IMG/VR virus record: IMGVR_UViG_2706796142_000001
Coordinates: 1 to 64,000 of that record
Length of the DNA stretch: 64,000 nt
Direction: 5' to 3' (one strand)
DNA from: a virus
Taxonomy: Duplodnaviria > Caudoviricetes
In this document: positions 40,638 through 42,575 of the stretch, in pieces
Layout: the number at the start of each line of letters is the position of its first letter
How positions within the stretch are numbered: position 1 is the first letter of the stretch
The notes under the pieces: model-generated
What the model saw: the letters and a program-made list of their open reading frames with translations, nothing else
The model's database searches: none
Told to the model about the DNA's origin: nothing
Position numbers and translations under genes: made by a program

Positions 40638-40838
40638 GTGGAACATATCCCTAAAGAAGAATTGATTGTTGGTAAGCGTTACAAGGGTCGTTGTCGTAAC
40701 GCTACAGAAGCAGTATGGGATGGTAAACAATTCGAGTATACCCGTAGTAAGTTTGGGCATACATTTCAGGAGAAGATCTATTGTCCTGAAGATGATGATG
40801 TTTACGATGTGTTCTATGCTCAACAAGCTATTGACTAG
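40638..40838 (+). CDS. Hypothetical phage protein
   Basis: AGGAG RBS; GRCRNATEAVW...KFG...PEDD..YDVF. Confidence 0.7.
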   Translation: MEHIPKEELIVGKRYKGRCRNATEAVWDGKQFEYTRSKFGHTFQEKIYCPEDDDVYDVFYAQQAID

Positions 40839-40860
40839 CAACATAAGTTGGTAGTAGTAT
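40831..40860 (+). promoter_or_regulatory. Sigma70-like promoter of the tRNA operon
   Basis: TTGACT-18 nt-TAGTAT; tRNA-Asn starts 8 nt after the -10 box. Confidence 0.65.
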
Positions 40861-40867
40861 CATTTTC

Positions 40868-40943
40868 GACGGGTTAGCTCAGTTGGTAGAGCGATTGACT
40901 GTTAATCAATTGGTCATCGGTTCAAATCCGGTACTCGTCGCCA
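40868..40943 (+). tRNA. trnN: tRNA-Asn(GTT)
   Basis: Hand-folded cloverleaf, loop CT-GTT-AA, encoded CCA. Confidence 0.95.
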
Positions 40944-40949
40944 AATTAT

Positions 40950-41026
40950 ATTCCCGTAGACAAATTGGTACAGTCACCACACTTTCACTGTGGAGTTTGT
41001 GGGTTCAAGTCCCATCGGGAATGCCA
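40950..41026 (+). tRNA. trnE: tRNA-Glu(TTC)
   Basis: ATTCCCG/CGGGAAT acceptor, loop CT-TTC-AC, CCA. Confidence 0.93.
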
Positions 41027-41032
41027 AACAAT

Positions 41033-41108
41033 AGTCCTATAGTTCAGTCGGTAGAATACCTCCCTGTCACGGAGAAGGTCACGGGTTCGAGTCCCGTTAG
41101 GACTGCCA
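41033..41108 (+). tRNA. trnD: tRNA-Asp(GTC)
   Basis: AGTCCTA/TAGGACT acceptor, loop CT-GTC-AC, CCA. Confidence 0.93.
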
Positions 41109-41111
41109 AAT

Positions 41112-41187
41112 TGCTTCATAGCTCAGTGGGTAGAGCAACCGCCCGATAAGCGGTAGGTCACTGGTTCAAGTCCAGTTGAAGCAACCA
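41112..41187 (+). tRNA. trnI: tRNA-Ile(GAT), atypical C33
   Basis: TGCTTCA/TGAAGCA acceptor, loop CC-GAT-AA, CCA. Confidence 0.92.
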
Positions 41188-41189
41188 GT

Positions 41190-41339
41190 TTAGAGGTATT
41201 CAAGGTCGTTGGTCATAGTGGTTTTCGGTATAGCCCCGAACAACGTAAAATGATCCCTTGCCTCTAATCAATTCCGATTCGCTACCGGAAGACCTGTCAA
41301 CCAGACACTAACTGGTCAATTGGGTGAGAAGCCCATTCA
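41190..41339 (+). ncRNA. Predicted structured RNA A/B in the tRNA operon
   Basis: Nested stems TTAGAGG/CCTCTAA, CAAGG/CCTTG, CGTTG/CAACG, TTCGG/CCGAA, then three hairpins including TGGG-TGAGAAG-CCCA. Confidence 0.6.
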
Positions 41340-41345
41340 AATTAT

Positions 41346-41440
41346 GGAAGCTACAAACACAAGTAGGTCAGGTATTCCTTGGGGCAGTGTCTGACGTGAA
41401 AGTGGAATTGTGAGTGGTGAGAACCCACGAGCTTCCTGCA
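41346..41440 (+). ncRNA. Predicted tRNA-like structured RNA C
   Basis: 7-bp GGAAGCT/AGCTTCC closing stem plus TGCA end; T-arm-like GTGG-TGAGAAC-CCAC; long arm CACAA/TTGTG, GTCAG/CTGAC. Confidence 0.65.
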
Positions 41441-41445
41441 AATTA

Positions 41446-41527
41446 GGGGGATTAGTCAAGCGGTCGAAGACGGCAGACTGTAAATCTGTTATCCCACACG
41501 GTAGTTCGAATCTATCATCCCCCACCA
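41446..41527 (+). tRNA. trnY: tRNA-Tyr(GTA)
   Basis: GGGGGAT/ATCCCCC acceptor, loop CT-GTA-AA, CCA; unpaired 10-nt variable region. Confidence 0.92.
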
Positions 41528-41531
41528 ATTA

Positions 41532-41608
41532 CGGCATTTAGCTCAGTTTGGCAGAGCATCGGCTTTGGGAGTCGAGGGTCGAAGGTTCAAATCCTTCAGT
41601 GCCGACCA
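41532..41608 (+). tRNA. trnP: tRNA-Pro(TGG)
   Basis: CGGCATT/AGTGCCG acceptor, loop TT-TGG-GA, CCA. Confidence 0.93.
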
Positions 41609-41613
41609 AATTT

Positions 41614-41705
41614 GGAAGATTGGCTGAGTGGCTAAAGGCGTCCGGTTGCTAACCGGAAGGCGGTGTAACAGCTTCCCACTGGTTCGAATCCAGTATCTTC
41701 CTCCA
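41614..41705 (+). tRNA. trnS: tRNA-Ser(GCT)
   Basis: GGAAGAT/ATCTTCC acceptor, loop TT-GCT-AA, long variable arm, CCA. Confidence 0.93.
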
Positions 41706-41710
41706 TCTTC

Positions 41711-41787
41711 AGGTCGTTAGCTCAGTTGGTTAGAGCACCGGACTTTTAATCCGGATGTCATTGGTTCGAGGCCAATACGACCTACCA
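41711..41787 (+). tRNA. trnK: tRNA-Lys(TTT)
   Basis: AGGTCGT/ACGACCT acceptor, loop CT-TTT-AA, CCA. Confidence 0.94.
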
Positions 41788-41789
41788 AA

Positions 41790-41906
41790 TTACAGTCCAG
41801 CTTTCTTCTAAATGAAACTCTATTGTGAGTGACAAATAGATCCCCTTAGGGGTAAGGGAAGTTGATAACAATATGCAGTACCCAACTACTGCTGGACTGT
41901 AACCCA
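41790..41906 (+). ncRNA. Predicted CCA-ended structured RNA D (117 nt)
   Basis: 10-bp TTACAGTCCA/TGGACTGTAA closing stem plus C-CCA; GCAGTA/TACTGC hairpin; branched internal arm. Confidence 0.65.
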
Positions 41907-41987
41907 TTTCGGCTCGCTAATCCGAAAACTTGATGTGCTGCTTAACTGGGCTATCCCCCCATCCAAAAGGTTAACTGCACATCGCCT
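41907..41987 (+). ncRNA. Predicted structured RNA E
   Basis: TTTCGG-CTCGCTAAT-CCGAAA then GATGTGC/GCACATC with TTAAC/GTTAA and TGGG/CCCA. Confidence 0.5.
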
Positions 41988-42016
41988 GCCTCGATTGGTT
42001 CCCGTAAGGAACTACT

Positions 42017-42052
42017 AAACCCCTGCATACACAACTATGCAGGGGTTTTTTT
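42017..42052 (+). terminator. Terminator of the tRNA operon
   Basis: AAACCCCTGCATA-CACAAC-TATGCAGGGGTTT plus T-run. Confidence 0.88.
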
Positions 42053-42077
42053 ATATCTGAACCAAGAGGAAATACCA

Positions 42078-42575
42078 ATGAAGTTGAACCAACTGACTGA
42101 TGAAATCCGTCACATGGTACTGGGTGCTGCACAGCATGTGCTGGCTACTCAAGACGACCATGCATCGATGGATCGCTTCCTGACTAAAACCCATAAGCTG
42201 CTGGAGCATGAATTTCCTGAACCAGTAGAAGATGATGAGGCAGAGATCACCATGATTGCCCGTCTGTGTCACCAAGCGAATAAAGCCTACTGTGAATCGC
42301 TGGGGGACTTCTCTCAGCCAGACTGGGAAGATGCACCTTCTGAGATCCGTGCGTCTGCCATGTTCGGAGTTGAGTTCCATCTGGAAGCTGATCGTACTCC
42401 TGCTGAGAGCCATGAAAACTGGATGAAGCAGAAGATACTGGATGGCTGGATGTATGGCCCGGTTAAGAACTTTGAAACCAAAGAACACCCTCTGCTGGTT
42501 GATTACGACCAGTTACCACAGGAACATAAATCGAAAGATTATATCTTCCGTGGTATCGTTAACGCCTTCAAATAA
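42078..42575 (+). CDS. RyR-domain protein
   Basis: HENWM..K..DGW.YGP.K....K.HPLLVDYDQLP...K.KD; GAGG RBS. Confidence 0.85.
   Translation: MKLNQLTDEIRHMVLGAAQHVLATQDDHASMDRFLTKTHKLLEHEFPEPVEDDEAEITMIARLCHQANKAYCESLGDFSQPDWEDAPSEIRASAMFGVEFHLEADRTPAESHENWMKQKILDGWMYGPVKNFETKEHPLLVDYDQLPQEHKSKDYIFRGIVNAFK

Follow-up and report, generated by a model that had tools for sequence, protein, structure and literature searches.

Folding and comparative analysis of the window (the whole 64,000-nucleotide stretch of phage DNA studied here) suggests that a 95-nt segment of its tRNA operon, element C, has the shape of the top half of a tRNA in which a long hairpin replaces the decoding arm. A divergent homolog on a metagenomic contig retains both helices of this frame through compensatory changes while its arm differs in sequence.

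Setting and predicted structure of element C

Across 41150-41460, the window is 99.7% identical to the Erwinia phage vB_EamP_Rexella (Schitoviridae, Johnsonvirus); the source phage is a Rexella-like, N4-like Erwinia phage with a full record of 75,147 bp. ARAGORN and Rfam placed eight tRNAs on the plus strand at 40868-41787, all eight with an encoded CCA. The spacers between the tRNAs are 3-6 nt long, commonly AAATT, with two exceptions: a gap of 258 nt separates tRNA-Ile from tRNA-Tyr (41188-41445), and another gap lies past tRNA-Lys. Element C (41346-41440) forms the final 100 nt of the former gap, between element B and tRNA-Tyr, and has AAAUU-type spacers in common with the operon tRNAs. The GenBank annotation of Rexella shows nothing at this position, and the coding potential over element C is limited to ORFs of 20-63 aa, none of them supported or credible. 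The sole RNA run aligned (X21) gave 0 reads over the stretch and is thus uninformative on expression; indexed RNA runs contained no more than 5-8% of the sequence words. The features of the operon and of element C are as follows.

40831-40860: sigma-70-like promoter-like site, single, upstream of the tRNA operon
41272-41337: element B, with its hairpin at 41321-41335
41338-41345, plus strand: 5' junction and leader CAAAUUAU, ending in A(-2) and U(-1) before the predicted RNase P cut
41346-41352, plus strand: 5' strand of the acceptor stem, GGAAGCU, in perfect 7-bp pairing with 41430-41436
41353-41411, plus strand: long irregular arm, with ACAA/UUGU, CAC/GUG, a 3x3 purine internal loop and a terminal hairpin in the MFE fold
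41361-41363 and 41399-41401, plus strand: the 3x3 purine internal loop of the arm in the MFE fold
41367-41395, plus strand: terminal hairpin of the arm, 12 pairs, GTCAG/CTGAC at its head, loop UUGG
41414-41428, plus strand: hairpin at the T-arm position, GUGG (41414-41417), UGAGAAC loop (41418-41424), CCAC (41425-41428)
41429, plus strand: single G that separates the hairpin from the 3' strand of the acceptor stem, the same in the homolog L111
41430-41436, plus strand: 3' strand of the acceptor stem, AGCUUCC, pairing with 41346-41352
41437-41445, plus strand: discriminator U (41437), GCA (41438-41440) and AAUUA spacer; tRNA-Tyr starts at 41446
42017-42048: terminator, single, downstream of the tRNA operon

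RNAfold predicted a three-way junction of -30 kcal/mol for element C, which persisted when the full 258-nt gap was folded. The parts named in a sequence-only reading of this DNA, namely the 7-bp stem, the discriminator T followed by GCA, the 7-nt-loop hairpin and the long arm, were all located. The CACAA/TTGTG helix proposed there for the arm exists as a register, but the MFE fold instead favors ACAA/TTGT plus CAC/GTG around the 3x3 purine loop. The hairpin at the T-arm position consists of four Watson-Crick pairs and an A.G pair. Its UGAGAAC loop matches the T-loop consensus only at U54, R57 and A58, and the G53-C61 closing pair is retained. Loop positions 55 and 56, which in tRNA pair with the D-loop, are replaced, in keeping with the absence of a D-arm.

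The MFE z-score of the window copy against shuffles was only -1.6, which is unremarkable. A perfect 7-bp stem anchored at both cassette ends was obtained in 301 of 200,000 shuffles (0.15%), and the same anchored stem with an adjacent hairpin of 4 bp and a 7-nt loop in 27 of 200,000 (0.0135%). It is position, not energy, that sets element C apart from chance.

Further along the operon, a tRNA-Pro was found at 41532-41608 between tRNA-Tyr and tRNA-Ser, where the Rexella annotation has no tRNA. The Pro-Ser stretch of the window is approximately 70% identical to the Pro-Ser-Thr tRNA region of T4, which points to tRNA cassette exchange with T4-like phages.

Conservation, loss and exchange of the cassette

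Scanning of metagenome contigs for the B-to-C junction identified a 74.5-kb contig (L111) with the same layout of tRNAs and element B as the window, and a homolog of element C in the same slot between B and tRNA-Tyr (L111:6178-6283). The homolog reads GGAAGCA, approximately 70 nt unlike the window arm, GAGG-TGAGAAC-CCTC, G, TGCTTCC, C and GCG, followed by UAUUU. Acceptor pair 7 changes from U-A in the window to A-U in L111, and the hairpin stem from GUGG/CCAC to GAGG/CCUC (U-A to A-U), which amounts to one compensatory pair in each helix; the 7-nt loop and the single-G spacer are identical. The L111 homolog folds into the same three-way junction, with z = -4.5. The sequence of its long arm differs from that in the window and contains a purine-rich 8x8 loop, and the two arms have in common a purine-rich internal loop under a terminal hairpin.

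A covariance model built from the window copy alone detected L111 at 29.1 bits (E = 7e-5) and gave no other match among 25 loci (178 kb). The two homologs were aligned on the basis of the model, since MAFFT slips onto an internal ATGGAAG duplication in L111. All 53 of 53 cells were paired, compared with 33-45% for slid controls, in a count that comprises two sequences and a model-fitted alignment that leans towards structure. In the two lineages compared, the frame is thus conserved with covariation while the middle differs. The compensatory changes, the identical loop and spacer and the differing arm suggest that the frame is under structural constraint and that the arm is exchangeable. The proposal that element C keeps the acceptor and T-arm half of a tRNA is strengthened by the retention of both helices in L111 and by a related phage contig from run X7, in which 41428 C>T turns the G-C pair of the hairpin into G41414-U41428 with pairing kept, as well as by the tRNA operon setting with its AAAUU-type spacers. 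The accompanying proposal of a specific protein-binding arm was not supported, as the arm is the non-conserved part and its sequences differ between the two homologs.

The L111 homolog opens with a tandem duplication, ATGGAAGC-ATGGAAGT (L111:6175-6192). Through G.U pairs, the 3' strand could also accommodate the second copy (GGAAGUG), so that the 5' end of the L111 RNA is ambiguous.

In the cultured-phage collection, the whole of element C was found only in Rexella, at 100% identity. Element C is rare, and its divergent full-length lineages known to date number two. In the sister phages Ea9-2, Tellus, phiEaP8 and Kuerle, in CRW-SP2 (Ackermannviridae) and in a contig of run X10, B is joined directly to tRNA-Tyr. 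These direct joins indicate that C is an accessory cassette of approximately 100 nt flanked by CAAATT repeats, and it appears to be dispensable. Patterns of the 5' half and the 3' half of C returned nothing in metagenome or viral contigs. Two matches to the half patterns in genome_contigs lay inside GC-rich coding sequence, and the 11 loci matching the pattern TACAAACACRAGTAGGTC in viral contigs were all low-complexity coding repeats without tRNAs; both sets were attributed to chance.

The T4-like Kosakonia phage Kc304 carries only the 5' half of C, 46 nt including the CAAATTAT junction at 95.7% identity. The fragment follows tRNA-Asp and runs straight into a different, 96-nt tRNA-like element, which is intact past tRNA-Tyr in Ea9-2 and Tellus. 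The same CAAATTAT junction also precedes T4 rnaC, the L111 homolog and other tRNA-like elements. The X7 contig has the order C, tRNA-Tyr, 96-nt element, and shares with Kc304 an A>G change at 41361. The Kc304 arrangement would be explained by a deletion between GGGCAG motifs in an X7-like array, and its copy of C is probably a truncated remnant.

The 96-nt element was located at L015:701-796 (Ea9-2), L018:~991-1083 (Tellus) and L001:1544-1637 (Kc304). It reads GGGCAGG...CCUGUCC-A-CCA and contains a G3:U70 pair; its T-arm is close to canonical, and its encoded end is ACCA. Its match to the tmRNA model is sub-threshold (approximately 19 bits, E ~1e-4). It is 98% identical between the N4-like Erwinia phages and the T4-like Kosakonia phage, and in Ea9-2 it takes the slot held by tRNA-Pro in the window. 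This element could be an alanine-accepting tRNA-like RNA.

Another module of the gap, element A (window 41190-41270), lies directly past tRNA-Ile and differs in sequence in almost every related phage. Its counterparts (L015:440-512, L016:1050-1120, L017:990-1075, L018:660-790 and L111:5955-6050) have in every case a long terminal stem beginning GUUU-. The L111 version resembles an element past tRNA-Tyr in phiEaP8, suggesting that cassettes also change position.

Comparison with T4 species 1 RNA and with element B

The closest analogue of element C is the T4 species 1 RNA (rnaC, 139 nt), which the sequence-only reading had not named. The order in T4 is tRNA-Arg, rnaD, AAAUUAU, rnaC. Like C, rnaC lies in a phage tRNA operon, right after an AAAUUAU junction and downstream of an rnaD-like RNA; the upstream RNA opens with a UCGCUA-loop hairpin in both T4 (rnaD, species 2 RNA) and the window (element B). 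In architecture only, rnaC and C share a 7-bp acceptor, a hairpin in T-arm position by the 3' strand and a long arm where a tRNA has its D and anticodon arms. Both end in a discriminator U followed by NCA and not CCA (U-ACA in rnaC, U-GCA in C). Unlike C, rnaC carries a T-loop of canonical sequence (UUCGAAU) on a stem of 5 bp, as well as a 10-bp hairpin whose CGUCAA loop is conserved, and it occurs in approximately 750 phage records, whereas C occurs in two divergent lineages.

A covariance model of rnaC (R1) was built from an alignment of seven diverse T4-like copies. In the consensus, the 7-bp acceptor stem is accompanied by a long arm, a hairpin of 10 bp and a T-arm of canonical type, and the RNA ends in U-ACA; compensatory change was seen in 22 of 44 pairs. 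Model R1 gave no match to element C at E<=10. Element C resembles rnaC in layout and stands outside its sequence family. An acceptor stem and a canonical T-arm combined with a long insert were also observed in two unannotated elements, one in Kuerle between tRNA-Gln and tRNA-Ile (L017:795-908; a weak match to R1 at 14.8 bits) and one in Klebsiella phage vB_KpnM-20 past tRNA-Gln (L112:509-655). Each is preceded by CCAAATTAT.

The recurrence of the TGAGAA loop in element B, as previously pointed out, was confirmed at 41325-41331 (TGGG-TGAGAAG-CCCA), and the loop of element C recurs on other stems in the widespread B-type hairpin of unrelated phages. This hairpin, UGGG-UGAGAAG-CCCA, is part of an invariant 18-mer (AUUGGGUGAGAAGCCCAU) and lies at the end of a widespread element that resides in phage tRNA clusters and has no Rfam match. 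Copies were found at L021:10558-10622(-), L026:1857-1921(-), L023:3593-3657, L104:996-1060(-), L028:2136-2200, L020:2394-2458(-), L019:1032-1110 and L112:~385-420. In every tRNA-flanked copy, the hairpin lies 5-9 nt before the next tRNA, which may be Tyr, Gly, Leu, Ser, Pro, Arg, Met or Gln. The short form of the element is 60 nt long with three hairpins, two of which covary, and the stem in Klebsiella Taipeivirus is a compensated CGGG/CCCG. The long form in Erwinia phages begins with a UCGCUA-loop hairpin, as T4 rnaD does. A second hairpin with the UCGCUA loop, UUUCGG-CUCGCUAAU-CCGAAA, was observed at window 41907-41927, beyond element D in the stretch that follows tRNA-Lys. Apart from its stem, which differs, it corresponds to the first hairpin of B and to the start of T4 rnaD.

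Possible role and origin of element C

With moderate confidence, we read element C as a non-decoding, tRNA-shaped RNA that would be released by host tRNA-processing enzymes, with the minihelix as a handle for processing and stability and with an exchangeable arm. C and the eight tRNAs would share one transcript, which would begin at the promoter-like site (40831-40860) and end at the terminator (42017-42048). In the conserved minihelix, the 7-bp acceptor would stack on the hairpin at the T-arm position to give 7 plus 4-5 stacked pairs. Because RNase P reads stacked acceptor and T stems, and C offers these with an A(-2)U(-1) leader, host RNase P is expected to cut between U41345 and G41346, and this cut would also set the 3' end of B. 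The known substrates of RNase P extend beyond tRNAs to tmRNA and to the phage RNAs M3 and C4, among others (PMC11143913). The P1/P7 C4 antisense RNA, the phi80 M3 RNA and minihelix model substrates obtain their 5' ends from RNase P through an acceptor/T-stem-like stack (PMC11143913). C4 acts by antisense pairing, whereas C has no complementarity of more than 10 nt to its own phage genome; a search there for an antisense target returned no complementarity of at least 11 nt, and 12 ten-mers compared with approximately 10 expected from shuffles.

Once RNase P frees tRNA-Tyr, RNase E and exonucleases may trim the AAAUU spacer. The product would be a stable RNA of approximately 92-95 nt with neither an anticodon nor an encoded CCA, which might act in trans, and the long arm would be an exchangeable insert, not a conserved binding site. 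The GCA end (GCG in L111), as opposed to CCA in all eight tRNAs, suggests that, barring trimming and repair, the RNA is not made to be charged. Trimmed and repaired 3' ends occur in T4 tRNA-Pro and tRNA-Ser. With GCA or GCG at the 3' end instead of CCA, RNase P makes weaker contact with that end of its substrate, and an unrepaired RNA could not be charged. The points that count against our reading of C as a processed, tRNA-shaped RNA are this 3' end, the unmet T-loop consensus, the z-score of only -1.6, the restriction to two lineages and the dispensability of the element.

The main rival is a neutral, decaying cassette, in which C would be a tRNA-derived pseudogene or recombination remnant, possibly from a phage tRNA-Ser, lying passively between CAAATT repeats and without function. 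This is consistent with the narrow distribution, including sister phages without C and the truncated copy in Kc304, with CAAATT at both ends, and with a 3' end that is not CCA. In addition, two of the five differences between the window and the X7 relative over 429 nt fall in C, which is thus conserved no better than its flanks. The acceptor GGAAGCU with U73 is one compensated pair apart from GGAAGAU with U73 in the phage's own tRNA-Ser, and all seven phage tRNA-Ser genes examined in the gene pool start with GGAAG (GGAAGAT in six of the seven). However, the acceptor alone is alike and the global alignment to tRNA-Ser is weak (z = 1.4-2.5), leaving descent from tRNA-Ser as a lead and not a result. 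Neutral decay is, moreover, an unlikely outcome when two lineages with unrelated arms keep both frame helices by compensatory changes, with loop and spacer identical, and when the L111 fold is far more stable than shuffles. It is rather improbable that C and its neighbors, B and the rnaC- and rnaD-type RNAs of T4, are phage-made tRNA decoys or hijackers that titrate or redirect a host factor reading the top half of tRNA. Such a decoy would combine a tRNA-Ser-like acceptor with a long arm placed as the variable arm is in type II tRNAs and with a T-loop that lacks the two bases for D-loop pairing, and the invariant GG-UGAGAAS-CC hairpin, common to the leader hairpin before tRNAs in unrelated phages, would be its recognition element. 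Candidate targets would be a tRNA-targeting defence nuclease, seryl-tRNA synthetase, the CCA-adding enzyme or RNase P. On host mimicry, a blastn search of 5,426 E. coli genomes with B plus C gave no match; such a search is blind to short mimicry.

C may alternatively act in cis as a processing module, whose minihelix would give RNase P a site for defining the 3' end of B and would keep B at a distance from tRNA-Tyr, with the released piece as a by-product. C always lies between B and tRNA-Tyr (in the window and L111), what is conserved in it coincides exactly with the smallest unit that RNase P recognizes, with the arm left free to vary, and its leader ends in A(-2)U(-1). A purely cis role is nevertheless improbable, since in most relatives tRNA-Tyr already gives the cut 5-9 nt past the B hairpin and C is thus unneeded; it also leaves the long structured arm in both lineages unexplained. 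Membership in a catalogued tRNA-like family, either the tRNA-like domain of tmRNA or the bacterial Y RNA YrlA, is highly improbable; the sequence-only reading had named tmRNA and bacterial Y RNAs as known RNAs with this tRNA half. In topology, C does resemble the tmRNA tRNA-like domain (RF00023) closed by helix P2, with paired ends, a stacked T-arm-like hairpin and one long helix at the anticodon-arm position. Unlike tmRNA, it has A3-U70 instead of G3:U70 and lacks CCA, a canonical T-loop and an mRNA-like part or tag reading frame. YrlA (RF02553) is likewise a non-coding RNA with a tRNA-like module, but its ends form the Ro-binding stem and its tRNA-like part is internal, with D- and T-arms, whereas the ends of C form the acceptor stem. 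A Rfam search that included the Y RNA and tmRNA models as well as the tRNA model (RF00005) gave no match to element C at E<=10, nor did any Rfam family match the L111 homolog at this threshold, and the YrlA matches in 40700-42300 fall only on true tRNAs, at 15-25 bits compared with a gathering score of 69. ARAGORN, which called the eight tRNAs elsewhere in the operon, reported neither a tRNA nor a tmRNA at 41346-41440.

The T4 species 1 and 2 RNAs have been without an assigned function for approximately fifty years, and reviews and a 2022 omics study list no known function for RNAC and RNAD (PMC3014915, PMC9697503). Element C is a smaller, rnaC-type version without a D-arm in an unrelated family, the N4-like Schitoviridae, and the natural arm swap between the window and L111 together with the natural deletions in Ea9-2 and Kc304 constitute ready-made mutants. 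Near-identical cassette pieces occur in N4-like Erwinia and T4-like Kosakonia phages, and the B-type hairpin is also found in Ackermannviridae, suggesting that non-coding cassettes move between the tRNA operons of phage families. If such RNAs are released by host tRNA enzymes, tRNA processing would serve phages as a general route to small RNAs.
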